Part shown: one piece after another, positions 4,699 to 52,726 of the stretch
Layout: every line of letters begins with the position of its first letter
Position numbering within the stretch: position 1 is the first letter of the stretch
Translations under genes and position numbers: made by a program
The notes under the pieces: model-generated
What the model saw: the letters and a program-made list of their open reading frames with translations, nothing else
Databases searched by the model: none
Told to the model about the DNA's origin: nothing
Source: Candidatus Micrarchaeota archaeon
Lineage (GTDB): Archaea > B1Sed10-29 > JAJRYS01
Reading direction: 5' to 3'
NCBI GenBank assembly: GCA_964643685.1
Contig: CAZXTN010000002.1
Coordinates: forward strand, 28,069 to 87,948
Length of the DNA stretch: 59,880 nucleotides

Positions 4699-4709
4699 AC
4701 AAAATGAAA

Positions 4710-6599: not shown

Positions 6600-6633
6600 T
6601 AATCTCCTAAAAAGAAGACATCATTTATAAAAC

Positions 6634-15973: not shown

Positions 15974-16077
15974 GCACTTTTAAAAAAAAAAAAAGCTTTT
16001 TTAAAGGAACTTTTTTAAAAAAGAATCCCTTTTTTTCCTTGTTTGTTTAAATAAAAATTTACATCAATTGAATCGTG
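15974..16077 (+). repeat. 23S processing stem, 3' arm
   Basis: 'GCACTTTTAAAA...AGGAACTTT...TTTTTTTCCTTGTT...TTGAATCGTG' is complementary to 12157-12268. Confidence 0.75.
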
Positions 16078-16366: not shown

Positions 16367-18127
16367 CTACAGCTGACTGCTTTCTTCAAGCTTTGTTCTC
16401 TTCTGGTTTTCAAACATTTGCTTAATTTCTTCAACAGTAGTGACATCAAATACTCCCTTGTCTTCTCTTATTTTTACAAAACGAGGAAACCTCAAAGCAA
16501 AGCCAAGTCCATTCTCGTCCCTGCCGCAAGTATGCACTGGGCTTCTGGTAATCTCATCAGCTATGACTTCAACAACCAGCTTCGGCTCGACCCAAAAATC
16601 AGGTTCAATTAAAGAATCAACCAAACTGCTTTTTTTCTTAAGTTTCAAATTAGTTAATTTTTCATTGAAAAAAGCCAAGTCTTCTTCGCTGAAACCGCTG
16701 CCAACTCTTGCAATTGTGACAAATTTTTCTCTTGTCTTGTCATAAACGCATCCGAGGAAACCGCCGAAACCAAAGCCAGTTCGCTTGCCTTTACCCCTGT
16801 AAAAACCAACAACAGCCAAGTCAACGCTGTCCTCCAAACCACCTGAATAACTTCTTTTTAATTTTACCCAGGCAAATTTACGCGCTCCGACAGTATAAGG
16901 AGCATTCAAATCCTTAACCACCACTCCTTCTAATCCTTTTTCAACTGCTTCATTAAAGAATTTTTCAAGCTCTTCAGCACTGTCAGTGATTATTTCCTTA
17001 GCTAATTTTAAAACATCATTTTCTTTAATCACTTCTTCTAAAATTTTCCTCCTTTGCTTGAAAGGCAATTCAGTTAAATCCTCTCCATCCTTGAACAAGA
17101 TGTCAAAGAAGAAAACGTGAACAGGAAACTCTTTTTTAAGCTTGTCCACGCCGTATTTCCTTTTCCTCTGCACTGTTCCCTGAAAAGGAAGGTATTCTCC
17201 TGTCACATCATTGAAGCTTAAAACTTCGCCGTCTAAAATAAGCGAGTCGAAAGGAAGCTCTTTAACTGCCGCGACTATTTCAGGAAACATTGAAGTCAAG
17301 TCATTCTGTCGTCTTGAAAAAATCTTAACTTTCTGCTTGTTTTTATGAACAAGCACGCGCATGCCGTCGTACTTGTGTTCAACAGCGCATTTTCCAAACC
17401 TTTCAATTATTTCCCTTGCATTTGGAAGGCGTTCGCATAAAGCAGGCATTACAGGACGCTCTGCAGTCATCTTCAATTCCTTGACTGCTTTTAATCCTTT
17501 TTCAAAAAAAGTCTTAGCAACCAAGCCCAGGTCGCTTGTCACGTTAAATGCTTTTTCAAAAACGCTTCGCAGTGACTTGTCTCCTGCTGAGTAAACGCTT
17601 AAAGCATCAAGCACAGTAGGTGCATTCACCCCCAGCCTTAATTCACCTAAGGCGATTCTTGTAAGGTACTTTGCTTCCAAGCCGTTTGCGTTTCCAAGCA
17701 ATTCCGACAGCAACCGGATTTTAAGAGTTTGAGAGCCGCTTCCCTCTGCTTCTGAAATTTTCTTAAGGCTGTTATAAACATGGCTGACTGTAAGGGCTTT
17801 TGAAAACAAGCTTGACTGCTTCTTTTTTTCAACTAATTTTTCAGCTGTTTCACCTAAATCGCCTGTTTTTTTGAACAATTCATCAACTTGTTTTAAGGAA
17901 TATCCTGTTGCATTTGCAATAGCTTGCTCCACTAAAGAAACACCTAAACCCAGTTCAGATTCATTGAAAGAAGGCCCGATTGTGCCTAGAAGAAGGTAGA
18001 TGATTTCATCAACTTCACTTGGATTTGATTTTTTAAGCAACTCGACTATGTAGTCAGTCATTTCAAGGCGCTTGGAAGTTGATTCAAGCTTGTTAAACAC
18101 TGTTGCTAATTCATTGAATCTCATCAA
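16367..18127 (-). CDS. lig: ATP-dependent DNA ligase
   Basis: Adenylation motif 'EHKYDGMRV', 'LILDGEVL', 'FFFDIL', 'EGVVVK' and an OB-domain C-terminus. 586 aa. Confidence 0.92.
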   Translation of the reverse strand: MMRFNELATVFNKLESTSKRLEMTDYIVELLKKSNPSEVDEIIYLLLGTIGPSFNESELGLGVSLVEQAIANATGYSLKQVDELFKKTGDLGETAEKLVEKKKQSSLFSKALTVSHVYNSLKKISEAEGSGSQTLKIRLLSELLGNANGLEAKYLTRIALGELRLGVNAPTVLDALSVYSAGDKSLRSVFEKAFNVTSDLGLVAKTFFEKGLKAVKELKMTAERPVMPALCERLPNAREIIERFGKCAVEHKYDGMRVLVHKNKQKVKIFSRRQNDLTSMFPEIVAAVKELPFDSLILDGEVLSFNDVTGEYLPFQGTVQRKRKYGVDKLKKEFPVHVFFFDILFKDGEDLTELPFKQRRKILEEVIKENDVLKLAKEIITDSAEELEKFFNEAVEKGLEGVVVKDLNAPYTVGARKFAWVKLKRSYSGGLEDSVDLAVVGFYRGKGKRTGFGFGGFLGCVYDKTREKFVTIARVGSGFSEEDLAFFNEKLTNLKLKKKSSLVDSLIEPDFWVEPKLVVEVIADEITRSPVHTCGRDENGLGFALRFPRFVKIREDKGVFDVTTVEEIKQMFENQKRTKLEESSQL

Positions 18128-19980: not shown

Positions 19981-22227
19981 TTAAAAAGCATCGAGTTTTT
20001 CAATTCTATTTTTTCCTTTTTCATCAGAGTAAGTGATGACCCACACTGGCTTAAGCAGTTTTGAAACAGACAACACTTTAGCATCCTCTAAGACAGCTGG
20101 AATTTTTTTCACAAGCTTTTCATCAACTTCAAAGTCATTTACAACAGCGCTTCTCGGCTCCTCTTCATTTAAAGACAAGGAGTAAGAATCAAAAGAAGGG
20201 ATTCTTACTTTTTTCTTTAAGTAATACTTGCCTTCTTTCTTGTCAACAAAGCCAAGCCGAGCCAAGTCATTCAAGTTCCTGCCTACAACTTGTGCATTAA
20301 ATCCAGTCAAAGAAACAAGCTTTTTCACATCGCTTGTTTTTTCAAGCAGTTTCAAAAGCTTTACTTTTTTTGAATTTAATGAAAGCAAATCCCTTACTTG
20401 AGTTGTTTTTTTCAGCTTGCTTTTCTCATCATAAAACAATTCAAGAGTTTCATCAACATACAGTGTTTTTTTAAGCAAGCCTTGTTTTGAATTAACCTGC
20501 ACTTCAAGCTTGAACAGCGGCTCGTAAACAAGCTCCACTGACTTGACTTTTTCTTCTTTTCCAAACAAGCCAAGCTTCTTTTTATGCTTGTGCTTTTCAG
20601 CATACTGCAAAGCCTGTTCCCTGCTGGTTTTCAGCTTCACTGCCTTCAACCCAAGTTCTTTTATTTTTTTCTTTTTTTCAAAGCCAGGTAAGATGATGAA
20701 ACCGTTTTGCATTTCAACTTCTTTTTCTTTCACAATCAATTCAATGACTTCAGCTGAATCTATTTTCACCCCGTATCTTTTTGAAATAACTTCCACGTAA
20801 TCATCAACTTTGCTTAAGCTTATCCTGCCAGTCGCAGCTGCTTTCTTGTAAACCAAGTCAACAAGCAATTTTTTAACGCTTTCCAAGTCAATCTTCTTCT
20901 CCTCATTAGTATTAACTTCCCTTCCTTCATGCTGGGACAACCTCGGGCGAACTTGCATTACAAAAGCACGTGAAGTCTCATCGCTTCTGTCTCCAACAAG
21001 ACAAGTGCCTATTGGAAGCTTTTTTACAAAACCGCTTTTAGTAAATTCTTTCGGCAGGCTTGTTGGCATTCTTTTCAAAACCGCTTTCACATCCTCGTCA
21101 AAAACAAGCTTATGGCATAACAACAAGTCCAATTGAGACAAGACACGGGTGTCGATTGCTGACGGCTGCTGAGTGGCAAACACTAAGCTGCATCCTGGAC
21201 GCCTCCCTTGTTTGACATATTCAATTAATGAGTTTGTTGCTGCTGTTTTTGAAGAACCGCTTGGAATAAGGGTGTGTGCTTCGTCTATGAAAAGCCATGT
21301 TGGTGGAATGTCTTTTTCAACAACTTCTTCCAAGTCATTTAATTCAACAAATCCCCCCATTGTCTCTTGGCGGGTAACCAGCTTGCGCGCGTTTAATATT
21401 TTACGCGCTAGCATTCCAATAACTAGTGAAGCTACGTTTTCATCTAAGAAGCTGATGTCAATTACGCTGACTACTCCTGCTTTGCACACTTCTGCAAGCG
21501 AAGTGCCTTCCTTGCTCAGCACTCCCCATGACTTAGCAGCCTCTAATCTTGAAACAAGTGCTCTTCTTGAATCGCTTTTATATCCTTTTTCTTTTGAAGT
21601 TAATTCCTTGTCTTTTTCAATTACTTTAATTAATTCATCCAAGCTGAAGTCTCCGTATTTTTCTCTTGCTTTTTCAATTGCTTTTTCAAGCAACAAGCCT
21701 GACGGCGAGAATCTTTCTATTCCAAAAGTAAGGCACCAGTCTTCTACATTCAACTCGCTTGGCTTCAAGGAAAACAGTTTGTCATAAGTGTTTTTAGGAA
21801 CGGTGTTTCTCAAGCCGTATGGCACGAACACGCGGGTGTTTTCAACTCCTGTTGGCTCTAAGCCCCAATCGCTTAAGACGTTTAATTCTTTTGCATCGCG
21901 GTTTGGAAACTTCATGCTCCAGAAAATCCCAATTGGATCAATTACTACGCTTGCTACATTCGGATTTTTCAGCACTAATTCTTCTGCAATAACTCCAAGA
22001 GAATATGATTTTCCGCTTCCTCTTGCTCCGCTTATGAAAACAACGTGAGGAGACAAGCCGTCTAGGAATACTTTTTTATGAAAACCTTGCTCGTCTAAAA
22101 TCCTGCCTAATAATAATGCTCCTTCTTCGCCGTATTTTTCAAAAACGCTTTTTTTCCTGCCTATGAAAAAGCCACTTTCTCCTTCAAGGAGGTTCAAATC
22201 TTCGCTGCTACTTACTTTGAAATTCAT
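19981..22227 (-). CDS. HerA/FtsK-superfamily ATPase (DUF87-like) with a ~300-aa C-terminal extension
   Basis: Walker A 'ISGARGSGKSYSLG', Walker B 'WLFIDEAHTLIP' and 'VFATQQPSAID'. The C-terminal third contains a winged-helix-like stretch, 'LVSLTGFNAQVVGRNLNDLARLGFVDKKEGKYYL'. Confidence 0.75.
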   Translation of the reverse strand: MNFKVSSSEDLNLLEGESGFFIGRKKSVFEKYGEEGALLLGRILDEQGFHKKVFLDGLSPHVVFISGARGSGKSYSLGVIAEELVLKNPNVASVVIDPIGIFWSMKFPNRDAKELNVLSDWGLEPTGVENTRVFVPYGLRNTVPKNTYDKLFSLKPSELNVEDWCLTFGIERFSPSGLLLEKAIEKAREKYGDFSLDELIKVIEKDKELTSKEKGYKSDSRRALVSRLEAAKSWGVLSKEGTSLAEVCKAGVVSVIDISFLDENVASLVIGMLARKILNARKLVTRQETMGGFVELNDLEEVVEKDIPPTWLFIDEAHTLIPSGSSKTAATNSLIEYVKQGRRPGCSLVFATQQPSAIDTRVLSQLDLLLCHKLVFDEDVKAVLKRMPTSLPKEFTKSGFVKKLPIGTCLVGDRSDETSRAFVMQVRPRLSQHEGREVNTNEEKKIDLESVKKLLVDLVYKKAAATGRISLSKVDDYVEVISKRYGVKIDSAEVIELIVKEKEVEMQNGFIILPGFEKKKKIKELGLKAVKLKTSREQALQYAEKHKHKKKLGLFGKEEKVKSVELVYEPLFKLEVQVNSKQGLLKKTLYVDETLELFYDEKSKLKKTTQVRDLLSLNSKKVKLLKLLEKTSDVKKLVSLTGFNAQVVGRNLNDLARLGFVDKKEGKYYLKKKVRIPSFDSYSLSLNEEEPRSAVVNDFEVDEKLVKKIPAVLEDAKVLSVSKLLKPVWVITYSDEKGKNRIEKLDAF

Positions 22228-25018: not shown

Positions 25019-25786
25019 ATGAAAAGCAAAAAAACTCGTTCTAAAAAAATAACAAAAACAAAAAAACAAACACCTTCAAGCGAAGAAAAACTAAACAATC
25101 TGCTGCAATTCGCGGCAATACTAGCAATATCAGCAATCCTGCTGAACTACTTAATGGCAACGCACAGGGACATGACGTTTGAAAAAAGAGCAATAGGAAG
25201 CCAAGTAAACTTCATGCTGAACTTAATTGGAATAAACTCATCTTTCTATGAACAAGTGGTGAGGATAAACAACTACCCTGAAAAAAACCAGACAATAATG
25301 CAACTTTCTAGGTACTTGGATGAAAAAAAAGAAGCAAACGGGCAAGTTGAATTAAGAGCAAAGCACATCCACCCTGATGATGAAAAAATAATAAAAGAAT
25401 ACATAAAAAAAGAACAAAGCAAAGGAAACCCAATATACTACTCCCCCTCATATGTAATAACAACAGGAAAACTCGGCGAAACACAAGTTGAAATAATCCC
25501 AGAATGCATCGGATGGATAGGATTATTCGCAATAGCTTCGCTTATACTCGCAACACCTGGAATTGCACTCAGAAAAAAAACAAAAGCAATCCTAGCAGCG
25601 CTTCCAATAATGTACTTGGTAAACCTGCTGAGGCTGACAACCACTATATACATAGGAACAAAAGCAGGAGAAACAGCTCTTCAGTTCACACACGACATTC
25701 TCTGGAGAATAATACTCATAGGCACAGCCTTAATCATCTGGCTAGCATGGTACATTAAAAACAAGCCTGAAAAAAGCAAAAACTAA
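25019..25786 (+). CDS. Exosortase/archaeosortase-family protein (compact form)
   Basis: Ordered Cys-Arg-His signature in membrane helices: 'IIPECIGWIGLF', about 40 aa later 'YLVNLLRLT', about 25 aa later 'FTHDILWRI'. Confidence 0.55.
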   Translation: MKSKKTRSKKITKTKKQTPSSEEKLNNLLQFAAILAISAILLNYLMATHRDMTFEKRAIGSQVNFMLNLIGINSSFYEQVVRINNYPEKNQTIMQLSRYLDEKKEANGQVELRAKHIHPDDEKIIKEYIKKEQSKGNPIYYSPSYVITTGKLGETQVEIIPECIGWIGLFAIASLILATPGIALRKKTKAILAALPIMYLVNLLRLTTTIYIGTKAGETALQFTHDILWRIILIGTALIIWLAWYIKNKPEKSKN

Positions 25787-25858
25787 ACTTTTTTAAACAA
25801 ACCTTGCTTTCATTAAAAAAAAGAAGAAACTGCAAAAACTTTCAAAAGGAGAAAAGAA

Positions 25859-27709
25859 ATGGTTGACGTTGACAAACTGAAAAAAAGCCAAGAAGAATTA
25901 AGGCAAAGCATAAGCAAAATGGAAACAAGCATAAACCACAAAAAACAGCTTGAAGGCTACTCCCGCGACAGGGAACTAGAAGACATGGTAAAAGTAGCGC
26001 TAAGGCAAAGCAAAAAAGTAGCAGACAAAGTAGATTACCTAATGGACGCCATGATAGAAGCAAGTGAAAACACAGACGACTCCACAGAAAAAACAATGAA
26101 AGCAATAGCAGAATCGCAACTCGCCTTAATGGAAGAAATCAAAAAAATAGAACAAAAAGTAAACCAAACCCAAAACTTGAAGCAATTAATAGACTCGCAA
26201 AAAGAAGCAACACAATCATTAAAGAAAAAACTACTCCAACTAGAAGAAGAAATAAAACAATTACCTGAAAACCTAAAAATAAACATTATAAAAAAAGAAG
26301 TCGAAGACCTCAGCCAAGAAATAAAAGAAGTCGAAGAACAAATGAAAAAATCACCTGAAAAAGCAGAAAAACAAGTTCAAGCAATCAAGCAAGAAATAGA
26401 CAGCATAAAAAACACAATACAAGAAACAGAAAAACAAATGCAAAAAATAAAAGAAGAAGACGACAAAATACTTGAAAAAACAAGCACATACGACACAATT
26501 AAAATAAAACTAGAAAACCTTCAAAACACAATCAACCACTTCGAAGAAATACTAAAAACAGGACAAATTCAAAAACAAAGCGACTTAAAAAAACAAATAG
26601 ACTCGATAGAAAACAAAATGAAAGAAATAGAACAGCTTCGAAAAATAGTGGACAGCGCAGTAAAAGAAAATCAAGAAGAAGAGCAAAAACTAGAACAAGT
26701 AATAAGCAAAATAAGCGAACTAAAACACGAAATTGAAAAAGTAAGCCAATGGACAGAATCATACCCAATAGGAGAAGCGCAGGAAATAAGCTTCATAACA
26801 CAAAAATTCGAAGAACTTGAAAGAAAATTCGAAGAACTAAGCTCCAGGCAAAACAAAGAAGCACTCAAGCCAGAAATAGAAAAAATAAAAAAACAACTGC
26901 AAGACATTCAAAAAAAAACACCAACAATCCATCCAACAGAACAAGACATTCAAAACACGCTTAATGAAATGAAAACAAGAATAAACCAAGCTGAAAAAAA
27001 CACAGAAACCCAGGAAAAAATAAACGAAACAATCCAAAAAATAAACGAAATAAAACAAAAACTAAAAACAAGCAACAGGATATCAAAACAAATCGAAGAA
27101 CTGGAAAAAAAAATAAAAGAACTTGAAAAAAAAGTAAATGAAACTTCAGCGCTTCCTGAAAAGCACATAAACGAAATGAAAAAACACCTCAATGAAATAC
27201 ACAGACACACGCAACAAGACGAAAAAAAACTAGCAAAAGAACACAAGTCAAACCTTTATCAAATACTTGAAGACATAAACTTTCCTGAAGAAAAAATACA
27301 TAAAAAACCAGACATAAAAAAAGAACTTGAAAAAATAAGAAAAAAAGCACCTAAAAAACACCAAGCAAAAATAGATGAGATAATAGACGCTTACGAACAA
27401 ATAATGAATTCTCTTGAAAAATACGAACAAAAAGGAAAAAAAGAAATAAAAAAATTAAAACAAGCAGAAAACACAGCTAAAAAAGCACAAACAAAAGAAG
27501 AGATAGTTGAAAAGTTCATTGAAAAAATGCCGGCAGGAATCAAACTGAAAATAAAAGACACTGCAAAAACAATGGAAATACCTGAACAAGAACTCCTGAA
27601 AATCCTTAAAAAAATGCAATCACAAGGCAGAATAAAACTAGTAAAAGAAGGAATAATTCCCCTATTAACAAACAAGCACACGCACATCGAAAAACCAAAA
27701 TCTTTATAA
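25859..27709 (+). CDS. Long coiled-coil protein (Glu/Lys/Gln-rich)
   Basis: 616 aa with heptad-like composition throughout. AAGGAG lies upstream of the ATG. The C-terminal ~60 aa are less repetitive ('ELLKILKKMQSQGRIKLVKEGIIPL'). Confidence 0.6.
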   Translation: MVDVDKLKKSQEELRQSISKMETSINHKKQLEGYSRDRELEDMVKVALRQSKKVADKVDYLMDAMIEASENTDDSTEKTMKAIAESQLALMEEIKKIEQKVNQTQNLKQLIDSQKEATQSLKKKLLQLEEEIKQLPENLKINIIKKEVEDLSQEIKEVEEQMKKSPEKAEKQVQAIKQEIDSIKNTIQETEKQMQKIKEEDDKILEKTSTYDTIKIKLENLQNTINHFEEILKTGQIQKQSDLKKQIDSIENKMKEIEQLRKIVDSAVKENQEEEQKLEQVISKISELKHEIEKVSQWTESYPIGEAQEISFITQKFEELERKFEELSSRQNKEALKPEIEKIKKQLQDIQKKTPTIHPTEQDIQNTLNEMKTRINQAEKNTETQEKINETIQKINEIKQKLKTSNRISKQIEELEKKIKELEKKVNETSALPEKHINEMKKHLNEIHRHTQQDEKKLAKEHKSNLYQILEDINFPEEKIHKKPDIKKELEKIRKKAPKKHQAKIDEIIDAYEQIMNSLEKYEQKGKKEIKKLKQAENTAKKAQTKEEIVEKFIEKMPAGIKLKIKDTAKTMEIPEQELLKILKKMQSQGRIKLVKEGIIPLLTNKHTHIEKPKSL

Positions 27710-27753
27710 ACACACTTTGATTTTCATAAACTCAAGAAAAACATTTATCTTAA

Positions 27754-27966
27754 AAAAAAATGGAGGTAAGATAAACATGAAAAAAGGAATATCACCAGTA
27801 GTAGCAGTAGTCCTACTAATAGCAATAGCAGTAATCGCAGCAGTAGGAGTATGGTACTGGGTAGGAGCATACACAGGACAACCAAACGTAACAACAAGCG
27901 TAAAAACATTCACAGTACAAAAATGCAACGGAACACACGTCTACGTACAAAACAACGGACAAGAAG
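27754..27966 (+). repeat. 213-nt block identical to 28699-28911 (RBS plus first 63 codons of a pilin gene)
   Basis: I compared the two copies base by base and found them identical from the A-run before TGGAGGTAAGATAAACATG through '...AACAACGGACAAGAAG'. Confidence 0.9.
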
Positions 27967-28169
27967 CACTAAGCACTAGTGTAAATGTTTATACAACAGC
28001 AGGAGCAGACACAGGAGCAAAAATAAACTTCTCAGGAACAAGTGTCTCAGCAGGAAATGCAGCATGGGTTCCATTAGTAAACAGCACAAACGGAATAATA
28101 CAAACAGCTCTTGATGGAAACTACCAAGTACTAGCAACAAACGTACAAACAACACCATTCAGCTGTTAA
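27777..28169 (+). CDS. Archaeal type IV pilin-like protein (class III signal peptide), paralogue 1
   Basis: 'MKKG|ISPVVAVVLLIAIAVIAAVGVWYWV' is a prepilin-type N-terminus. GGAGGT is the RBS. Two Cys residues (QKCNGTH and C-terminal PFSC). 130 aa. Confidence 0.8.
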   Translation: MKKGISPVVAVVLLIAIAVIAAVGVWYWVGAYTGQPNVTTSVKTFTVQKCNGTHVYVQNNGQEALSTSVNVYTTAGADTGAKINFSGTSVSAGNAAWVPLVNSTNGIIQTALDGNYQVLATNVQTTPFSC

Positions 28170-28203
28170 AAACAGCAACTAAAACCTTAATTTTTTAAAA
28201 AGA

Positions 28204-28229
28204 GAAGGCGGTAAACGCCTCTTCTTTTT
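28204..28229 (+). terminator. GC-rich hairpin plus T-tract after pilin 1
   Basis: GAAGGCG-GTAAA-CGCCTC followed by TTCTTTTT. Confidence 0.4.
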
Positions 28230-28284
28230 AAAAAAAAATAATTTTTTTATTTTTTACAAAGAAGAAGAAAGTGAAGTGTTCGTA

Positions 28285-28686
28285 ATGAAAAAAGGAATAT
28301 CACCAGTAATAGCAGTTGTTTTACTAATAGCAATAGCTGTCATAGCTTCAGTTGGCGTCTGGTACTGGGTAGGAAGTTATACAGGAAAACCAGGAGTAAG
28401 CGGAATGCAAAAAACAGCTGAAGTTCTCAAGTGCAACAGGACACACGTATTCGTACAAAATGTAGGGACTCAGAAACTAGACACTCAAGCAGAAATTTAC
28501 GATTCAAACAGCATACAAAGAGGGTACATTAACTTTCCAGGACTAGCAGGAGGAGGAATAGACCCAGGCGAATCAGCATGGGTTCCAATATACAATTCAT
28601 CTGACCAGCAAACACAACCAATAAGTACTGGAAATTACTACTTATTAGCATCAGGATACCAGGAAAAAAAATTCAGATGCGAATAA
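28285..28686 (+). CDS. Archaeal type IV pilin-like protein, paralogue 2
   Basis: 'MKKG|ISPVIAVVLLIAIAVIASVGVWYWV'. Cys in 'LKCNRTH' and in the C-terminal 'FRCE'. Diverged from paralogues 1 and 3 at the nucleotide level. Confidence 0.8.
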   Translation: MKKGISPVIAVVLLIAIAVIASVGVWYWVGSYTGKPGVSGMQKTAEVLKCNRTHVFVQNVGTQKLDTQAEIYDSNSIQRGYINFPGLAGGGIDPGESAWVPIYNSSDQQTQPISTGNYYLLASGYQEKKFRCE

Positions 28687-28698
28687 ATAACTATTAAT

Positions 28699-28911
28699 AA
28701 AAAAATGGAGGTAAGATAAACATGAAAAAAGGAATATCACCAGTAGTAGCAGTAGTCCTACTAATAGCAATAGCAGTAATCGCAGCAGTAGGAGTATGGT
28801 ACTGGGTAGGAGCATACACAGGACAACCAAACGTAACAACAAGCGTAAAAACATTCACAGTACAAAAATGCAACGGAACACACGTCTACGTACAAAACAA
28901 CGGACAAGAAG
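28699..28911 (+). repeat. Second copy of the 213-nt identical block
   Basis: See 27754-27966. The offset between copies is 945 nt. Confidence 0.9.
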
Positions 28912-29096
28912 ACTTGGATTCAAATGTAAACATTTATGATTCTTCAGGAACACCAAACGGAGCAATTGCATTTGGAACAACAAGCGTCTCAGCAGGAAGC
29001 AGCAACTGGGTTGCAATAACAGGAAACACATCAGCAGTAAGCGGAAGCTACGAAGCACTAGGTGCAAATATACAAACAACACCATTCAGTTGTTAA
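28722..29096 (+). CDS. Archaeal type IV pilin-like protein, paralogue 3
   Basis: The first 63 aa are identical to paralogue 1. The middle is diverged. The C-terminal 'IQTTPFSC' is conserved. Confidence 0.8.
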   Translation: MKKGISPVVAVVLLIAIAVIAAVGVWYWVGAYTGQPNVTTSVKTFTVQKCNGTHVYVQNNGQEDLDSNVNIYDSSGTPNGAIAFGTTSVSAGSSNWVAITGNTSAVSGSYEALGANIQTTPFSC

Positions 29097-31837: not shown

Positions 31838-32473
31838 TCAATCCTTAAACAAGGGATAGGTTACTCCTGAAAATATTAAAGCAGAGAACCAAGTTAGAGG
31901 AGGAAGGGGGTAAAAAGAAGACAGCATGAAATATGAAAAATTAAAAACAACAATAAATAACAAAGAGTAAGCTAAATAGCTTAATTTAAATCTTGTTTCC
32001 TTTGATTTTATCTTGTTTTTGAACTTGAAAAGGTTAAAAACAAGGAAAAGGAAGAAGAACAGTTCTACAAAAGAAAAGATAAGCAAAGGCATGTTCATCA
32101 AGTCAACGTATTTTACAAAAAAACCTTGCTTTACTTGAAAAAAAGGAAACAGCAAGATAAAAAAAGACAAGGGAATTAATGAAAGCCAGTCATTTTTTTC
32201 TTTTTCAAGCTCAAAAATAGTCTTAGCTAGAAAAAACAAAGTAATTGAAATAAAAAAGTAAGAAAAAATCATTGCAATCAAGGCAGTTAATTCAGTTGAA
32301 GAAGAGTATTCAATCAAGTCGCTTAAAATCCAAAAACCAGATGATAAAATGAAATAATTGTAGCTCTTCCGCGCTTTGGTTTTTGATTTTTGCTGAATCA
32401 AGGTAAAAAAAAGAGTGAACAGGACAACTGCTGAGATTAAAAATAACATTGTGAACAAATTAAATTCAATCAT
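31838..32473 (-). CDS. Polytopic membrane protein
   Basis: 211 aa with ~6 hydrophobic helices. Same strand as, and directly downstream of, the paralogue triplet. Confidence 0.5.
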   Translation of the reverse strand: MIEFNLFTMLFLISAVVLFTLFFTLIQQKSKTKARKSYNYFILSSGFWILSDLIEYSSSTELTALIAMIFSYFFISITLFFLAKTIFELEKEKNDWLSLIPLSFFILLFPFFQVKQGFFVKYVDLMNMPLLIFSFVELFFFLFLVFNLFKFKNKIKSKETRFKLSYLAYSLLFIVVFNFSYFMLSSFYPLPPLTWFSALIFSGVTYPLFKD

Positions 32474-32534
32474 TTTTCAAAACCTTTTCTTTTTCTTTTG
32501 TTTTAAATAAAAAAAATAAAAAAGAGGAAGAGGG

Positions 32535-33443
32535 TTACTGCAAGTGGCATGTCTGCTTTCCTGTTATTTCCTGCACTGTTGAAATCCACATGTTAGGAAT
32601 GCATCCTGGGTCAAGAGAGAAGTAATAAACACTTCCACCCATTATTCCTTTTTGTTCAACAACAGCAGGGACAGTTGAAGTTGTTCCAGTTTCCTTGTTT
32701 TCACCTGTTAAGATGCTGATAGTTCCACCTGCTAATGGATTAATGTCAATCACTTTCAAATCTCCGCTGCATGTCGGCTTGTCTTCAATCTTAGTTAAGT
32801 TCAATTTCAAGCCATAACCGACATTAATAGGGTTATTCAAATCAACTATTTTTAAAACAGGGTCAGATAATTGCAAAACAGGAATTTCAGTTGAATCCAT
32901 TGAAGCTGTTCTTCTCAATTCAATAGGCACTTTAATATGCCCCCATCCATTATACAAAGCATCTTCAGGATCTTTTGTAGCTGCATCTCCTATAATAATT
33001 ACTTTTCCTCCTTCTTCTAAATAAGTTTCAACAGCTGTCCTAACAGGACGAGTGTACATCCTATCGCCAGCTAAAACAAGCAAGTCATAATTTCTCAGCA
33101 AAGAACTTTGAACATAAGTTAAGTCATCAGGATTAAACACTTGATATTGCATGTTACAAGCCCTACCAAGCTCACCGTCAAGCAAAGCTCTTAACTCAGG
33201 AGCATTAACAACTGTTGCTCCACTTTTTCCAGTTTCTTCCAAGCTTCCAATAACAGCAATCTTAATAGTTCCTCCATTATTACATAAAGCTGCATTCAAG
33301 CCAGGCACTTCACAGAAAACATTAGTTGTCTTGCCAACAAGCACCACAGCTATTAAAACTAAAATAATCAAAGGCACCAAGCTTTCTAAATACTTCCTGG
33401 AACCACTTTCTTCTCCGTAATAATACGGCAAATCACTAGCCAT
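32535..33443 (-). CDS. Signal-anchored 'YY-TM-CxxPG' protein, paralogue 1
   Basis: 302 aa. 'LPYYYGEES', a TM helix, 'FCEVPGLNAALC', then 'IKIAVIG', 'YDLLVLAG', 'GGKVIIIGDAA' and 'GGSVYYFSLDP'. AGGAGGT is the RBS. The start overlaps the upstream stop (TAATG). Confidence 0.6.
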   Translation of the reverse strand: MASDLPYYYGEESGSRKYLESLVPLIILVLIAVVLVGKTTNVFCEVPGLNAALCNNGGTIKIAVIGSLEETGKSGATVVNAPELRALLDGELGRACNMQYQVFNPDDLTYVQSSLLRNYDLLVLAGDRMYTRPVRTAVETYLEEGGKVIIIGDAATKDPEDALYNGWGHIKVPIELRRTASMDSTEIPVLQLSDPVLKIVDLNNPINVGYGLKLNLTKIEDKPTCSGDLKVIDINPLAGGTISILTGENKETGTTSTVPAVVEQKGIMGGSVYYFSLDPGCIPNMWISTVQEITGKQTCHLQ

Positions 33444-34285
33444 TACTCACTACCTCCTAATAAGTATTTAACAGCATTTTTAAACAAGTTAGGTGTCCTG
33501 CTTGGGTGATAAGCAAAATAAATAGTCTTACCAGTCACGCCACTTGAACCCTCAACCAAGCCATACTCAGATAAAGTCTGCGTACCAACACTTGATTCAA
33601 TAACACCTAAACTCCTACCAGTTCCAACTAAATTAACAGGCAAGTACTCAAAACTTCCAGTGCCTTGAATTGGGATTGACTGAGTAGGATTATAACCTTG
33701 GAAAATAGGGTGATTAATATCTTGGATCATGAACTTCATTTGAGAAACACTGTGAGAATCAAACTCGCAGTCAACTGTCTTGCAAGAAACAGGCACAAAT
33801 TCGCCCATTCCACCAGCAGTCCAGCCATTCAAACTAGGCTCCACTGCATCCTTGGTTCCAGCTGCACCAAACAAAATAAACTTCTTATTCACTAATGCTT
33901 GAGCTAAATAACCGCGGAAAGCATTAGGCAATACATCCTTCTCTCCATTCAAGCCAGTGTTCTCAGTTAAAATAATCAAGTCATACTTTTTCAAATAATC
34001 AGCATCACGCAAAGTATTAATCTCATCAGGCTTCAGAATCTCGTGATTGAAATTCAAGCCAACATCACTAAGCATCAGCTCAATATTAGGGTCATCTCCT
34101 ATAATCAGAACATTATGAACAGCTCCACCGCAAGCGATAGCTCCAATGCCAGGCACGCCGCAAAGCCACTGCATCTTCCAAGCTAAAACAAGAACAACTA
34201 AAACAAGCAGAAGCAAAGGAATAGTCAATTCAAACCTCCTTTTCCATCCTTCTTCATAATCATAATAAGGCACTTCTTCCTGCAT
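33443..34285 (-). CDS. Signal-anchored 'YY-TM-CxxPG' protein, paralogue 2
   Basis: 280 aa from the ATG at 34285, which is preceded by GGAGG. 'VPYYDYEEG', a TM helix, 'LCGVPGIGAIAC', then 'VLIIGDD', 'YDLIILTE', 'KKFILFGAAG' and 'GKTIYFAYHP'. Confidence 0.6.
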   Translation of the reverse strand: MQEEVPYYDYEEGWKRRFELTIPLLLLVLVVLVLAWKMQWLCGVPGIGAIACGGAVHNVLIIGDDPNIELMLSDVGLNFNHEILKPDEINTLRDADYLKKYDLIILTENTGLNGEKDVLPNAFRGYLAQALVNKKFILFGAAGTKDAVEPSLNGWTAGGMGEFVPVSCKTVDCEFDSHSVSQMKFMIQDINHPIFQGYNPTQSIPIQGTGSFEYLPVNLVGTGRSLGVIESSVGTQTLSEYGLVEGSSGVTGKTIYFAYHPSRTPNLFKNAVKYLLGGSE

Positions 34286-34366
34286 GACAAAAACAACCTC
34301 CCTCAAAAAATAATTATACTAAATTAATGAAAATAATATTTATAAAACCCCCTCATAAGCAAAAAC

Positions 34367-35683
34367 TCACTTCAAACATAAAGTAAACTCCAACAAGTTA
34401 TCAATCAAATTAAGCCCCCTTCCTTCTTTAATCAACTCCTCAGGTGGGAAAGCATAGTAAATAACCAAGCCATTAGTGCCTATGCTTGGTCCAACAGGAT
34501 TTGAAACAAAAATAGCAGGATAAGAAACGCCATTAAAATTATCACCAAGCTTCAAATTCATAATAACCTTAGTTCTAAATTCATAACCAGTCGTATCAAC
34601 AATAGTGAAATTGCCTACTCCAAACCAATCAGCACTTACACTTGACTCATAACCCCTAATCAATAAATGATTAGCAACAGGAGTTAAAAACAAGTTGCTT
34701 CCCTGCTCTTCATTCAACTGCCCTACATAATCAGCACCAAGCACAGTGCTTCCGAAATTAATAGGACGAGTAATCTTATTAGTGCTTGACTTGCTCGCTC
34801 CCCTATCCCAGTAATTAACACCTGAATCACAGTATAAATGAACATCTTCGCTTGTAATTTCAGAAATGCTCTTGCCTGTATTAGACTCAACTTTTGCAAT
34901 GCAATTCAAGATATCCTCAGCATTCTTAACCTGATAAGGATTCCTTGTAATTGACTCATCATTGCATAAAGTAACAGAACCTGAAGTCGCTTGCTTGTAA
35001 TAACTTTCATTTTCTTCAATAAACTTCATAACAAGCCCAGGAAAATCATGAGCACACAAGCCAGCATTCAACTCGCTTGGAGAATCAGGGGTATAAGGGT
35101 CAGTCCACTGCCCGCAAACCTTCTTCTTTACCAAAACAGCTTGCCCATTCTCATCAACAACAGTGCTTCCATTCTCATCATACTTCGGCATCATCTGCTC
35201 ATAAGCAGGCAAGAAACTGAAACTAACTTCCTTGCACAAGTAATCAGTATCACTTAACCTGCTTCCAGCATCACCAATCCAAACAAGCTTGCCTCCTTTC
35301 TTGACATAATCACGGAAAGAAGCCAACGCCCTTGAATCCATTGTCTTAGCATGCTCAACAATAACCAAGTCATAATTATCCAAAACCCCTCCAGTCAACA
35401 AATCACTTACACTCAACTCCATCGGAAACTGATGAGCCCTGTCAATAATAGCGCTTCTCAACTCCTCAGGATTACCAGTTCCATCAACGCCACTTACAAT
35501 AGCAATACGAGGATAACCCCTGATTCCATAATACACTTTTTCAAAACCAGGCAAATCACAAGCCCTCATATAACCAAAATTAACAAGCAGAAACAGCAAC
35601 GCTACAACAAGCACAATCAAGCCAAAAATCTGAGGCAAATTCTTACTCAAACCACCGCTACTGCTACCATAATAATTATACAT
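34367..35683 (-). CDS. Signal-anchored 'YY-TM-CxxPG' protein, paralogue 3 (with a Cys-rich insertion)
   Basis: 438 aa. 'MYNYYGSS', a TM helix, 'ACDLPG', then 'IAIVSGVDG', 'YDLVIVEH', 'GGKLVWIGDAG' and 'GLVIYYAFPP'. The start is leaderless, 25 nt from a TATA box. Confidence 0.6.
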   Translation of the reverse strand: MYNYYGSSSGGLSKNLPQIFGLIVLVVALLFLLVNFGYMRACDLPGFEKVYYGIRGYPRIAIVSGVDGTGNPEELRSAIIDRAHQFPMELSVSDLLTGGVLDNYDLVIVEHAKTMDSRALASFRDYVKKGGKLVWIGDAGSRLSDTDYLCKEVSFSFLPAYEQMMPKYDENGSTVVDENGQAVLVKKKVCGQWTDPYTPDSPSELNAGLCAHDFPGLVMKFIEENESYYKQATSGSVTLCNDESITRNPYQVKNAEDILNCIAKVESNTGKSISEITSEDVHLYCDSGVNYWDRGASKSSTNKITRPINFGSTVLGADYVGQLNEEQGSNLFLTPVANHLLIRGYESSVSADWFGVGNFTIVDTTGYEFRTKVIMNLKLGDNFNGVSYPAIFVSNPVGPSIGTNGLVIYYAFPPEELIKEGRGLNLIDNLLEFTLCLK

Positions 35684-35708
35684 AATAAAAAAATAAACGA
35701 AACAAAAG

Positions 35709-35716
35709 TATATAAA
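35709..35716 (-). promoter_or_regulatory. TATA box for the paralogue-triplet operon
   Basis: The minus strand reads TTTATATA followed by CTTTTGTT, 25 nt upstream of the ATG at 35683. Confidence 0.5.
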
Positions 35717-35767
35717 TAAAACCCCTTCCTTATACTAAATAAACTAAAAAAAAAAAGAGGGAATTGA

Positions 35768-35962
35768 ATGAGAAGACCACGCCACTTAACACAAGGAATA
35801 CACTCTAGAACAGCAAACCAACTTATAAGAGAACTTAAAGAAGCTTATGACAAAGCAATGAAAATGGCACAAGAAGAAAAAGAAAAAAGAAAAGCAGAAG
35901 AACAAGCAGCTTTCTTCAAACAACTTGACAAAATAGAAAAAACAAAACAATCACAAAAATAA
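35768..35962 (+). CDS. Small Lys/Glu-rich hypothetical protein
   Basis: 64-aa ORF. AGAGGG lies upstream of the ATG. Coding status is uncertain. Confidence 0.3.
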   Translation: MRRPRHLTQGIHSRTANQLIRELKEAYDKAMKMAQEEKEKRKAEEQAAFFKQLDKIEKTKQSQK

Positions 35963-36470: not shown

Positions 36471-38201
36471 TCACTTTACAGTGACGCTTTTAGCCAAGTT
36501 TCTTGGCTTGTCAGGATCCAAGCCCTTTAAAACAGCAATGTAATAAGCAAGAATCTGAGCAGGAACCACAAACATCACTGGATTGAAATCGCCAACATCA
36601 AACACTTTAATCCAGTCATCAAACACCTCAGCTTTCTTCTCAGACACGCCTATAATCCACCCGCCTCTGCTTTTCATCTCCACAGCATTCGACAGCGTCT
36701 CCTTGTCGTCTCCGAAAACAATGCAAGGAGTGCCCTCCTCAACCAAGGCAATGTTGCCGTGCTTCAATTCACCACCTGCAAAAGATAAAACAGGAATGTA
36801 AGAAACTTCCCTTATCTTCAAGCCAGCTTCCAAAGCAGTAGCATAATGCTCATTCCTCCCTATGATGACAATGGCTTTCGCATCCTTCATCCTGTCAGCA
36901 ATTGCCTTAATCCTCTTCCTTTCTGACTTGCTTGTCAAGTTATACAACTCATTCCAAACCAAATCCAAACTGCCTTCTCCCCCAAAAGCTTCTTGAATAA
37001 TCAACACAAGCAAAGCAACTTGCGAAGTATAGGATTTCGTGGACAGCACGCAGATTTCAGGCCCTGCATTCAGCAACACAGCTGAATCGCTTTCCCTTTC
37101 AAGAGAAGAGCCTTTGACATTAACCAAGCTGAAAACTTTGGCTTCTTTTTCCTTAGCTTCTTTCACAGCTTCAAGAACATCAGCTGTCTCACCGCTTTGC
37201 GAAACAGCCACAACAAGAGTATCAGAATTAACTAAGTTCACATAATTGCTGAATTCAGAGGACTGCACTGCCCTTGCATCAACTCCTTTCTTAACAAGCA
37301 AAAGCTCAGCTGACAAGCACGCGTGAAAACTAGTGCCAGAGCCAACAAGCAGGATGCGCTTGGATTTTTTAAACAACTCAGCTGCTTGGCTCAAGTCCTT
37401 CCTTTTTGAAATGTTACGCAGAACTTCAACTTGCTCCAGAATTTCCTTCAGCATGAAATGCTTGAACTCCCCTTTCTTCGCCTGCTCAACATCCCAGTCA
37501 AGAGAATCAATAACAATCTCAACATTTTCATTCCTATGCAAGTTAAATATGCTGAAGTTTTCACGGGACAAAGTGAAGAAGTCGTAATTATTAAGCCACA
37601 CGACGCGGTTAGCCCTAGCTAAAAAAGCAGGAGCGTCGCTTGCTGCATAAAAACCCTTGTCAGACACTCCTAAAACAAGAGGAGAATCCTTTCTTATCCC
37701 GTAAATTTTATCTTCATTTTTTTTCAATACAAGCACTGCAAAACTGCCTTCAAGTTTCATGAAAGCTTTTTTCAAAGCAGTTTCAAAATCACTTCCCTGC
37801 TTTAATTCTTCTTCAATTAAATGAGGCACGACTTCGCTGTCAGTCTCGCTTTTAAACGCATGCCCCTTGCTGATTAAGTCTTTTTTTAATTCCTCGTAAT
37901 TTTCAATAATTCCATTATGCACGAGAGCTATTTCTCCGCTGCAGTCAAAATGAGGATGGGCATTTTGTTCAGTGACTCCTCCATGAGTAGCCCACCTGGT
38001 ATGCCCTATGCAAGTACTTGAATCAGCAAAGTTGCTGTCTAAACTGCTTACTTTTCCGACTTTTTTCAGAAAAGAAATTCCTTCACTTGTTTTCCAAGCC
38101 AAGCCATAAGAATCATAGCCCCTGTACTCTAAGTTTTTCAAGCCGTCTGCAACTATTTCAAAAGCGTTTTCTTCTCCAACATAGCCGATTATGCCGCACA
38201 T
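36471..38201 (-). CDS. glmS: Glutamine--fructose-6-phosphate aminotransferase
   Basis: 'MCGIIGYVG' N-terminal nucleophile, two SIS domains ('LLVGSGTSFHA', 'VSQSGETADV') and C-terminal 'LAKSVTVK'. The ATG at 38201 is 26 nt from a TATA box. Confidence 0.92.
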   Translation of the reverse strand: MCGIIGYVGEENAFEIVADGLKNLEYRGYDSYGLAWKTSEGISFLKKVGKVSSLDSNFADSSTCIGHTRWATHGGVTEQNAHPHFDCSGEIALVHNGIIENYEELKKDLISKGHAFKSETDSEVVPHLIEEELKQGSDFETALKKAFMKLEGSFAVLVLKKNEDKIYGIRKDSPLVLGVSDKGFYAASDAPAFLARANRVVWLNNYDFFTLSRENFSIFNLHRNENVEIVIDSLDWDVEQAKKGEFKHFMLKEILEQVEVLRNISKRKDLSQAAELFKKSKRILLVGSGTSFHACLSAELLLVKKGVDARAVQSSEFSNYVNLVNSDTLVVAVSQSGETADVLEAVKEAKEKEAKVFSLVNVKGSSLERESDSAVLLNAGPEICVLSTKSYTSQVALLVLIIQEAFGGEGSLDLVWNELYNLTSKSERKRIKAIADRMKDAKAIVIIGRNEHYATALEAGLKIREVSYIPVLSFAGGELKHGNIALVEEGTPCIVFGDDKETLSNAVEMKSRGGWIIGVSEKKAEVFDDWIKVFDVGDFNPVMFVVPAQILAYYIAVLKGLDPDKPRNLAKSVTVK

Positions 38202-38227
38202 GATAACAAATAATAAAGAACAAAGAG

Positions 38228-38235
38228 TATAAAAA
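38228..38235 (-). promoter_or_regulatory. TATA box for leaderless glmS
   Basis: The minus strand reads TTTTTATA, 26 nt upstream of the ATG at 38201. Confidence 0.5.
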
Positions 38236-38240
38236 TAAAT

Positions 38241-38915
38241 ATGAAAAGAAGAGAAATGCACAGAAAAAACACCCAAGCACGTGAATTGACAAAAGAGGAG
38301 TATTGGGAAATAAAAAAAGGGTATTTGTCAAAATTTGGAATAACAGAAAATGACATTGAAAAAAATTTGAAAAAAAGGCAAAATAAGATAAGTCACATTA
38401 AAAATGCAAAAGAAAGAAGCATGAACCTGCTTGACAGGACGATTGTCTTAAGATTGATTTTAGAATCAATGCCAGGAAAGACAATTGAAGAAAAAAGAAA
38501 AAAGTTTGAAGAAATAAGAAACAGTGACTTAATGGATTTTCTTGGAAAAATGCCAGGAGTAGGCAAAAGAAGCGGAAGCTCAGCTTCAAAAACAAAGTTT
38601 GAAAAAATGACAGCAGGCATTGAAAAAGTAACAATAGGCATAAGAGAGGAAATGAAAGAACTTTATGAAAAAAACTTTGACTTAGACGAATTCAGAAGAA
38701 ACCCTGAAAGAGCAGAGTTAAGAAGAGCAGCAAAAGACGCATTAAGACTGCTTAAAACAGCAGGGATAATAAAAATGGTAAGAAGCCCAAATGGAAGAGT
38801 TGAAAGAGTAAAAGTGCTTAAACCTGAAGCCCTTCAAAAAACAATTGAAACAGGATACATACAATTTCCAAATTTAAAACCAATATACGAAAGAGAAGAA
38901 AAAGAGACAAGATAA
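38241..38915 (+). CDS. Hypothetical protein (basic)
   Basis: 224-aa ORF. No motif recognised. Confidence 0.45.
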   Translation: MKRREMHRKNTQARELTKEEYWEIKKGYLSKFGITENDIEKNLKKRQNKISHIKNAKERSMNLLDRTIVLRLILESMPGKTIEEKRKKFEEIRNSDLMDFLGKMPGVGKRSGSSASKTKFEKMTAGIEKVTIGIREEMKELYEKNFDLDEFRRNPERAELRRAAKDALRLLKTAGIIKMVRSPNGRVERVKVLKPEALQKTIETGYIQFPNLKPIYEREEKETR

Positions 38916-47573: not shown

Positions 47574-47741
47574 TTACATTAGGACGTTTAGAAGCAGTTC
47601 TATTGCTATGAAGCCTATGCATATTCCTACTAGGAGTTTTGGGCTTATTTGTGGGCCTCCTCCGCCTGATATTCCTGCAAAGCTGGTTATTCCTGCATTT
47701 GCTCTTGGCCCCATTATTGGATTGCTTTTTATTCCTTTCAT
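47574..47741 (-). CDS. secG: Preprotein translocase subunit Sec61-beta/SecG (55 aa; not in the ORF track)
   Basis: My translation: MKGIKSNPIMGPRANAGITSFAGISGGGGPQISPKLLVGICIGFIAIELLLNVLM. The 'AG(I/L)..(F/Y)' motif followed by '(I/V).P' and a single C-terminal TM matches archaeal Sec-beta as I recall it. AGAGGT lies upstream of the ATG. Confidence 0.6.
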   Translation of the reverse strand: MKGIKSNPIMGPRANAGITSFAGISGGGGPQISPKLLVGICIGFIAIELLLNVLM

Positions 47742-47889
47742 TGTACATTACCTCTTTATTTTAATCAGTTTATCAGCATAAAGGAATAAAAGTTGAGCAC
47801 GACACTGCGATTTTATTCCTTATGAAGTTCTCTTGTTGTTTTTAATTTTAAGCAAGGGGTTATATAAATGTAATTAAACAAGTATTTTG

Positions 47890-48354
47890 TTAGATTCCTA
47901 TGAATGAAGCTATTCCTAATGAAGCAAGGGTGACTAGTATTGCTGCTATTAAGACTCCTGCTGTGAGGCTCAGGAATAGTTGAGTATAGGTGTATTTTTT
48001 GTTCATTCCAAGAGCCCATGCTAGGATTGCCCCTGCATATACTCCGCTTCCTGGGAGAGGAACTGCTACGAATAAAGCAAGTCCTATTAAGCCGTATTTC
48101 TCTATTTTTTCTTTGTTTGCTTTTCTTACTTTTTCCAAGTGATGGCTTAGTTTGGATGATTTTGACAAGTGGCTGAAAAAGGCATTCAAGCCTATGAAGA
48201 TGAATGGAATGGAGAGGATGTTCACAAGCAAAATGAACAGCAGTGAAGGCATTAAAGGGTATCCTGAAGCTATTGCTACTGGAACTGCTCCTCTTAGTTC
48301 AATTTCAGGAATCAGGGTTATTAAAAGCAATCGCAGGTAGTTTATCATAAACAA
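47890..48354 (-). CDS. Small membrane protein (putative small multidrug-export family, COG2426-like)
   Basis: 'IPEIELRGAVPVAIASG' near the N-terminus, with 4-5 TM helices. Confidence 0.55.
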   Translation of the reverse strand: MFMINYLRLLLITLIPEIELRGAVPVAIASGYPLMPSLLFILLVNILSIPFIFIGLNAFFSHLSKSSKLSHHLEKVRKANKEKIEKYGLIGLALFVAVPLPGSGVYAGAILAWALGMNKKYTYTQLFLSLTAGVLIAAILVTLASLGIASFIGI

Positions 48355-52619: not shown

Positions 52620-52726
52620 GGGTCTGTGGTCTAGCGGTTAGGACATCACCTTGACGACAACAGCTACAACTCTTGGGGTTGTTGGCAGCATGGTGAGGAT
52701 CCCCGGTTCAAATCCGGGCAGACCCA
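52620..52726 (+). tRNA. tRNA-Val(GAC) with a 34-nt intron at the canonical 37/38 position (~52657-52690)
   Basis: Acceptor GGGTCTG/CAGACCC. Anticodon stem TCACC/GGTGA enclosing TTGACG + 34 nt + T. T-arm CCCGG-TTCAAAT-CCGGG. Confidence 0.8.

Follow-up and report, generated by a model that had tools for sequence, protein, structure and literature searches.

Class-I glutamine-amidotransferase-like (GATase-like) domains without a catalytic triad are shared by the GIFT-domain proteins GldG (PF09822), IFT52 (its N-terminal domain) and OST48/Wbp1, in which they have a docking or putative sugar-binding role, without catalysis, within machines associated with membranes; in OST48/Wbp1, GIFT domains are thought to bind sugar and to dock partners (PMC7226087). 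Here we analyzed a 59,880-nucleotide stretch of a Candidatus Micrarchaeota archaeon (contig CAZXTN010000002.1; hereafter the window), whose archaeal source is evident from archaeal small- and large-subunit (SSU and LSU) rRNA genes and an archaeal RNase P RNA within it. Three consecutive minus-strand genes of the window, called g1, g2 and g3, belong to a new unnamed family inside the GIFT-like branch of the class-I GATase-like fold. The traits that distinguish this family are a type II anchor, a juxtamembrane Cys pair, a three-paralogue operon and adjacency to Sec61beta.

The mode of anchoring sets the family apart from its relatives. GldG has transmembrane (TM) segments at both ends, OST48 has a C-terminal one and IFT52 is soluble, whereas the g1/g2/g3 family is held by a type II N-terminal TM helix, to which it adds a juxtamembrane Cys motif, predicted disulfides and an invariable order of its three paralogues. 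The nearest described archaeal family, arCOG01314/DUF4350 (PF14258; Makarova et al. 2015, PMC5898192), is also membrane-anchored, extracellular and GldG-like or GH42-domain-B-like, and is predicted to form homo- or heteromeric surface complexes. However, DUF4350 proteins combine a signal peptide with a C-terminal TM segment and are encoded in MoxR-ATPase/vWA operons (PMC5898192), while the anchor of g1, g2 and g3 is N-terminal.

Three paralogues with a probable type II anchor

The first-pass annotation of this DNA had proposed that the three genes are paralogous, and BLASTP agreed for g2–g3 (E=1e-19, full length) and g1–g3 (E=5e-12). The g1–g2 pair was weak in BLASTP (E=0.022) and was settled by profile–profile comparison: hhalign of the ortholog-family profiles returned probabilities of 97.6% for g1–g2 and 98.6% for g1–g3, with both alignments spanning the proteins from the TM helix to the C-terminus. 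The three window proteins also align end to end with 404 family representatives and with each other. Judged from these alignments, g1, g2 and g3 are homologous over their full length and represent three ancient paralogues of one undescribed family. The features of the locus, with the basis of each call, are as follows.

34367–35683, minus strand: g1, 438 aa (list of open reading frames, ORFs)
33443–34285, minus strand: g2, 280 aa counted from ATG (ORF list)
32535–33443, minus strand: g3, 302 aa (ORF list)
31838–32473, minus strand: 211-aa polytopic membrane ORF neighbouring the module (ORF list)
35709–35720, minus strand: TATA-like element tttatttatata, ~31 nt 5' of the g1 ATG (sequence inspection)
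32505–32534, minus strand: T-rich tract, candidate archaeal terminator, immediately 3' of the g3 stop codon (sequence inspection)
34820–35248, minus strand: g1 insertion, residues ~146–288 (alignment A2 and hhalign gap)
47574–47741, minus strand: Sec61beta gene (HMM E=4.8e-16; Pfam Sec61_beta E=1.8e-05, 25.1 bits against a cut-off of 27)

The three genes and the 211-aa ORF were all found in the ORF list where they had first been placed, and the signals reported around them could be seen in the sequence. GGGAGG lies 11 nt 5' of the g2 ATG and GGAGG 8 nt 5' of the g3 start, the g2 stop and the g3 start overlap as TAATG, and the start Met of g2 is shared by its orthologs. The TATA box reported before g1 corresponds to tttatttatata, and no Shine-Dalgarno sequence was seen between this element and the g1 ATG. 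The distance agrees with the usual archaeal TATA-to-start spacing, making tttatttatata a candidate promoter compatible with a leaderless or near-leaderless g1 mRNA. The spacer between g3 and the 211-aa gene measures 61 nt and contains a long T-run; oligo-T is an archaeal termination signal, and the T-rich tract after g3 is a candidate end mark of the module.

The shared architecture described at first was confirmed, in that C-x-[VL]-P-G follows a single hydrophobic helix near the N-terminus of all three proteins. In g1, a short N-tail leads into the helix (~16–38), then C42-D-L-P-G and a class-I GATase-like ectodomain with a Cys-rich inserted subdomain. The g2 protein starts with the N-tail PYYDYEEGWKRRFE, followed by the helix (~19–39) and C42-G-V-P-G; its nucleophile elbow has degenerated to FGAAG and its C-terminal strand reads YFAYHPS. 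The corresponding elements of g3 are the N-tail LPYYYGEE, the helix (~20–38), C44-E-V-P-G...C54, the elbow IIGDAAT and the strand YYFSLDPGC. The first-pass motif lists had jumbled the gene order, and the Cys-rich insertion of ~150 aa that was assigned to the third paralogue actually resides in the first gene, g1. This insertion (~145 aa) sits between the beta4 'GDAG' elbow and the conserved Trp, forms one block in hhalign, contains six of the eight g1 cysteines and is missing from g2, g3 and the short Iainarchaeota-type g1. It was modelled with pLDDT >90 by AlphaFold2, and Foldseek gave no separate structural match for it.

Two motifs that had been regarded as common to the three proteins proved to be narrower. 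A YY pair within the first 16 residues is frequent in the g3 (20/32) and g2 (15/26) families but occurs in only 3 of 72 g1-family members, so that the 'MYNYYG' of g1 is, on this count, lineage-specific. The C-x-x-P after the helix is common in Micrarchaeota-type proteins (g3 27/32, g2 12/26, long g1 31/72) but absent from the short Iainarchaeota-type g1 (0/70), 67 of which carry a juxtamembrane C-x(3-12)-C pair instead. As far as the alignments reach, the family-wide features are the N-terminal helix, the juxtamembrane Cys pair, the G-[DA]-A-[GA] elbow, the Trp and a C-terminal aromatic strand Y-[YF]-x-[FY].

Topology was assessed on 200 family members of at least 240 aa, of which 196 have a clear N-terminal hydrophobic helix. 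In 194 of these 196 it is the single hydrophobic helix and N-terminal. The 15 residues ahead of the helix contain on average 1.86 Lys and Arg, against 1.0 behind the helix (N>C in 119 members, N<C in 24), and the number of cysteines after the TM helix is even in 186 of 196 (95%). Even cysteine counts and the K/R bias around the helix make it probable that the proteins are N-in/C-out (type II) with a disulfide-bonded outer domain, in line with the extracytoplasmic location first suggested; on the same two grounds, a cytoplasmic large domain was rejected. Since the N-tails and helices are conserved, the anchor is probably retained and uncleaved. The TM helix is more conserved than the ectodomain in all three families (0.78 vs 0.62, 0.89 vs 0.73 and 0.86 vs 0.68), and the invariant residues of the g3 helix, E20-P24-I27-I31-V34-K38, fall on one helix face (p=0.0004).

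Two other kinds of surface protein were considered and rejected. A regular-expression search for the class III signal peptide motif [KRDE][GA][ALIFQMVED][ILMVTAS]x2 found no match in ~200 family members; the proteins are not archaeal type IV pilin-like, as they have no prepilin-peptidase motif and a weak ComGE match (E=0.34) covers the TM helix only. Nor are they lipoproteins by inspection, the residues before the conserved Cys (MRA, NVF, QWL) being unlike a lipobox.

No Pfam or NCBIfam model reached its curated cut-off in scans of the four proteins of the locus, and NCBIfam returned nothing meaningful. The Pfam matches of the window proteins, namely ABC_transp_aux (GldG), ThuA, GLMA_2nd, IFT52_GIFT and Glyco_hydro_42M, scored 12–23 bits against cut-offs of 26–35. 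ABC_transp_aux (PF09822) stayed below its cut-off of 34.7 with 18.7 bits for g1 and 23.0 bits for g3, and did not match g2; TIGR03521 scored 10 bits (cut-off 389.85) and ThuA (PF06283) 15.5, 15.5 and 16.7 bits (cut-off 33.4). Among 56 family members, matches at E<=0.01 were to ABC_transp_aux in 34 (best E 3.1e-07, E-values only), GLMA_2nd in 9, ThuA in 8 and DUF4350 in 1. Sequence-profile searches of the PDB with A1, A2 and A3 gave ThuA-like proteins as the best match, along with IFT52 and GH42M, at E=0.07–0.7, none better than E=0.07. Because the curated thresholds of GldG, ThuA, DUF4350 and OST48 were not reached, the proteins are filed as a new unnamed family, and the literature searched for a DPANN family already described along these lines yielded only general GIFT and DUF4350 papers. 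The initial failure to name a characterised family thus stands, and relatives that carry a source name are all called 'hypothetical protein'.

Word-indexed searches recovered 16 relatives for g3, 45 for g1 and 12 for g2, including one labelled Woesearchaeota and one labelled Diapherotrites. With HMMER and a profile of all three families, 404 proteins, essentially all matched over their full length, were found at E<=0.001 among 1.84 billion cluster representatives. In GTDB, taking one genome per species, there are 43 loci, all from metagenome-assembled genomes labelled Micrarchaeota, Iainarchaeum/Iainarchaeota or unclassified 'archaeon'. This is a small, clade-restricted family and stands apart from ThuA and GldG, both of which are very large. 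No added domain turned up when nine relatives of 638–790 aa and one of 501 aa were scanned against Pfam.

The ectodomain fold

AlphaFold2 models, a check the first-pass annotation had suggested together with Foldseek, were built from the family alignments for g3 (mean pLDDT 79.9) and g1 (mean pLDDT 90.3). Searched against the PDB, both models gave Foldseek matches at probability 1.0 with E down to 4e-7, and the set at this probability comprised GH42 domain B, the IFT52 GIFT domain and ThuA-like proteins, as well as PurQ and SpuA. Domain B of GH42 beta-galactosidases was the top match for both models, and the IFT52 GIFT domain (5fmr/5fms) was matched at E about 2e-6. The ThuA-like structures 4jqs, 4pxy and 4e5v gave the best normalised superposition (TM-score up to 0.61 on target), and true amidotransferase domains were weaker matches. 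The modelled ectodomain is a flavodoxin-like alpha/beta fold that superposes on known class-I GATase-like members, which supports its placement in the non-catalytic GIFT/GldG/ThuA/GH42-domain-B branch of the class-I GATase-like fold and bears out the early guess of a ThuA-like or class-I GATase-like fold.

The catalytic triad, which had not been seen on first reading either, is not there. No Cys-His-Glu triad was found in the g1, g2 and g3 families, and neither a Cys or Ser nucleophile nor a His is conserved across them; the invariant residues are limited to Ala154, Trp167 and Tyr274 (g3 numbering). Where the nucleophile elbow would be, g1 has GDAG, g2 GAAG and g3 GDAA, and in place of the 'HPE' motif they have FPPE, YHPS and FDPG, respectively. 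When alignments A1 and A3 were compared with the secondary structure of the models, conserved acidic and aromatic residues mapped to the C-terminal edge of the sheet, which is the location of the triad in true amidotransferases.

The structural neighbours differ from the family in their context. ThuA-like proteins (PF06283) are soluble, without the TM anchor, Cys pattern and paralogue operon of the g1/g2/g3 family. GH42 domain B (Glyco_hydro_42M) is a non-catalytic oligomerisation (trimerisation) module, the role we propose for g1, g2 and g3, but it is internal to a cytoplasmic TIM-barrel glycosidase, whereas the g1/g2/g3 ectodomain is stand-alone, membrane-anchored and without a glycosidase domain.

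Gene order across genomes

ORFs were called in all loci and classed by family HMMs, and gaps were calculated from locus coordinates. Every Micrarchaeota-type locus has g1 (403–496 aa, with the insertion), g2 and g3 in fixed order, separated by 13–128 nt between g1 and g2 and by -1 to 30 nt between g2 and g3. This order is kept across distant genomes, down to 35–45% identity, so the triplet is conserved as neighbours, as had been anticipated. Iainarchaeota-type loci take three forms: a short g1 (307–351 aa) with one g2/g3-like gene, a long g1 (664–689 aa) with one or two g2-like genes, or a lone gene (15 loci). No partner gene was found within 6 kb of the lone genes even at E<5; the genes next to them have housekeeping functions (TGT, M17 peptidase, deoxyhypusine synthase, ZIP transporter). 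Since one-, two- and three-gene loci all exist, the pattern fits a diversification of subunits by duplication. In two loci one gene of the module is divided between two ORFs (g3 in L015, 8388–9263; g1 in L020, 2651–3916), which could be a frameshift, a pseudogene or an assembly error.

The 211-aa membrane gene, which had been counted with the triplet at first, did not pass the co-occurrence check across loci. It is present only in the closest relatives L001, L002 and L054 and absent from the more distant triplet loci inspected, and we do not consider it part of the module. Its product has only a sub-threshold Pfam match, to HisKA_7TM.

When the flanking genes of about 45 loci were clustered, the commonest neighbour was a ~58-aa gene on the opposite strand just 5' of g1, identified as Sec61beta by Pfam annotation and our own HMM. 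It occurs within 3.5 kb in 27 of the 42 loci with enough flank, and in about 22 loci it is divergent from g1 at a distance of 38–148 bp. The next neighbours are DNA ligase (13 loci), a ~940-aa class I tRNA synthetase (tRNA-synt_1, 13 loci) and Alba (12 loci). These data suggest that the ancestral position of g1 is head to head with Sec61beta, and vertical inheritance of the synteny block in two DPANN phyla is supported. No MoxR or vWA family was seen among the clustered flanking genes, which, together with the single DUF4350 match and the N-terminal position of the TM helix, separates the family from DUF4350.

In the window itself, Sec61beta, Sm_multidrug_ex, DNA ligase and HerA, which flank the triplet in other Micrarchaeota, are scattered 12–15 kb off (47574–48354, 16367–18127 and 19981–22227, all on the minus strand), suggesting a local rearrangement of the ancestral block. 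The place that Sec61beta holds in other genomes is taken here by a highly charged 64-aa ORF (35768–35962, plus strand), divergent from g1 across an AT-rich spacer of ~84 bp; it has no Pfam match and is unrelated to Sec61beta. In the Micrarchaeota-type locus L004, an extra 423-aa gene (2943–4214) with a faint BNR_2 (sialidase-like beta-propeller) annotation is located between Sec61beta and g1.

Genes of the hexosamine/UDP-GlcNAc pathway form a second context. GlmS (36471–38276, minus strand) lies 0.8 kb 5' of the module on the same strand in the window, and is near the module in L001 too. In L005, GlmM and a GlmU-like gene (4406–6996) are directly 5' of g1 with a 4-nt gap, and GlmU-like genes lie 5' of the module in L021 (3634–5019), L024 (3788–5071) and L025 (816–2240). 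This association is weaker than that with Sec61beta.

A proposed surface complex and its possible roles

We infer that the three proteins form a hetero-oligomer without catalytic activity, a platform for binding or docking that takes part in envelope or secretory biogenesis, and we hold this reading with confidence that is evenly balanced between its being right and wrong. The structural part of the picture is far more certain than the functional part. In this model, g1, g2 and g3 would be co-expressed from an operon-like unit, translation of g3 being coupled to that of g2, and would assemble through their TM helices and ectodomains into a hetero-oligomer, probably 1:1:1. Such an assembly is suggested because the gene order is fixed, g2 and g3 are coupled, the spacing is tight, the TM helices are conserved and the invariant residues of the g3 helix share one face. 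An oligomerising or docking role is proposed because related domains are used in this way by GH42 (trimerisation), IFT52 (IFT-B) and OST48 (the oligosaccharyltransferase, OST); the archaeal GldG-like extracellular domain family has likewise been predicted to form complexes (PMC5898192). For the acidic and aromatic residues conserved along the C-terminal edge of the modelled sheet, ligand binding is the most likely task and is preferred to catalysis, since the families share no nucleophile or His; the ligand would probably be a glycan or a partner protein.

As to the process served, the Sec61beta and Glm contexts and the proposed sugar binding by GIFT domains (PMC7226087) point to the envelope or secretory pathway, possibly to a glycan-related step. 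The usual site of g1, head to head with a core translocon gene, suggests a basic envelope-building role, and the platform may serve secretion-coupled or glycan-related envelope biogenesis rather than a function specific to symbiosis. The genomes of Micrarchaeota and Iainarchaeota are tiny, yet most sampled species retain one to three copies, and the proposed surface complex is clade-specific and probably essential. Once known, its role would define a lineage-specific component for archaeal secretion or glycan handling, and would supply a function for the GIFT/GldG/OST48 N-domain fold, which also occurs in bacteria and eukaryotes.

Several observations weigh against a non-catalytic hetero-oligomer in this pathway. 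The 15 lone-gene loci indicate that a hetero-oligomer is not obligatory. Acidic residues conserved at the former active-site crest, namely the elbow Asp of g1 and g3 and a Glu that closes beta3 in g1 and g2, might still make up a catalytic site of an unconventional type. The neighbourhood with Sec61beta may have been passed on as synteny and mean nothing functionally, and it has been lost in the window, where 11.9 kb separate Sec61beta from the triplet, and in L001. Hexosamine and UDP-GlcNAc pathway neighbours occur in a minority of loci only, and N-glycosylation sequons are not enriched in the three proteins. A functional Sec61beta link would allow one to test in a prokaryote how translocon-associated accessory complexes arose; without such a link, the triplet is a well-defined but ordinary new surface-protein family.

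The possible catalytic site leads to the alternative that has fared best, although we regard it as unlikely: that g1 and g3, at the least, work outside the cell as enzymes whose active site is non-canonical, made of the elbow Asp and nearby acidic or aromatic residues, and that they act on an envelope polymer or glycan with g2 as an inactive partner. The distribution of the elbow would fit this division of labour, as GDA[GA] is kept in the g1, short-g1 and g3 families and in only 1 of 26 g2 members, and the beta-strands carry a cluster of conserved polar residues at their C-terminal ends, the site of the triad in class-I amidotransferases. Some ThuA-like and GATase-like relatives are indeed enzymes. 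However, the best structural matches, GH42 domain B and the IFT52 GIFT domain, are non-catalytic, no catalytic family was significant, and the lack of a Cys or Ser nucleophile and of a His conserved across the families argues for the binding platform instead.

A further alternative, in our view rather improbable, takes the gene neighbourhood more literally and makes the proteins accessory subunits of the translocon or oligosaccharyltransferase, i.e. a GIFT complex on SecYE-beta and/or AglB that presents lipid-linked glycan or nascent chains and is an analogue, possibly a homologue, of OST48/Wbp1. The divergent Sec61beta gene at 38–148 bp from g1 spans two phyla in about 22 species, GlmS, GlmM and GlmU-like neighbours occur at some loci, and the conserved cytoplasmic tails and TM helices suggest a partner in the membrane. 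The GIFT domain of OST48/Wbp1 has been proposed to bind lipid-linked oligosaccharide or to dock partners, and interactions between translocon and OST subunits have been reported in work cited there (PMC7226087). On the other side, the OST48/Wbp1 family (PF03345) itself was not recovered: DDOST_48kD had no Pfam match even at E<=10, OST48 chains were not among the best 50 Foldseek matches, and the type II topology is opposite to the type I topology of OST48. AglB/STT3 was not found in the window or the annotated loci, and gene adjacency can be passive synteny. In its most specific version, a long shot, a heterotrimer of type II GIFT proteins would use its conserved cytoplasmic tails and TM helices to dock on SecYE-beta, and possibly on AglB, and hold lipid-linked glycan or nascent secretory proteins at the channel exit. 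No archaeal Sec translocon would have had an accessory complex of ectodomains before this one, which would also be a counterpart in archaea, by descent or convergence, of the OST48/Wbp1 part of the multi-subunit oligosaccharyltransferase of eukaryotes.

The first-pass annotation had speculated on a device for host contact or surface remodelling tied to the symbiotic lifestyle of DPANN archaea, to which we give a slim chance. The family is limited to two DPANN phyla and its proteins face the cell exterior, but nothing specific to such a role was found. The proteins are small and strongly conserved, unlike typical adhesins, and their genes belong to a synteny block of housekeeping genes that includes Sec61beta, DNA ligase, Alba and tRNA synthetases; repeats, adhesin domains and hypervariable regions were not found, and the long variants have no extra Pfam domain. 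GldG-like accessory subunits of an ABC-type exporter are very improbable: ABC_transp_aux is the most frequent Pfam match of the family, but its matches are below the curated cut-off and confined to the beta3-alpha3-beta4 element, the TM segments at both ends of GldG-type proteins are represented here by a single N-terminal one, and no GldA/GldF-like ABC ATPase or ABC-2 permease was found near the triplet in the window, beside the module in annotated loci or as a recurring family flanking about 45 loci.

Other features of the window

A surface-structure gene block on the plus strand (25019–29096), which also adjoins the triplet in L001 and L054, begins with an archaeosortase/exosortase-like protein (25019–25786). 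This is followed by a 616-aa ORF (25859–27709) with only weak sub-threshold Pfam matches and by three ORFs (27717–29096) whose N-terminal domains are of the archaeal type IV pilin kind; two of these matches exceed the Pfam cut-off and the third is weak. A 955-aa ORF (55982–58849, minus strand) has no Pfam match at E<=1e-4.

Two RNA genes of the window probably contain introns. The LSU rRNA gene (12258–15984) is about 740 nt longer than the Rfam model, and an ORF inside it (14414–14911, plus strand) encodes a LAGLIDADG_1 homing-endonuclease domain (E=1.1e-17), so that the extra length is probably an rRNA intron with a homing endonuclease. At 52620–52726 (plus strand), where ARAGORN was silent, a 107-nt Rfam tRNA match of 56 bits is probably an intron-containing archaeal tRNA.

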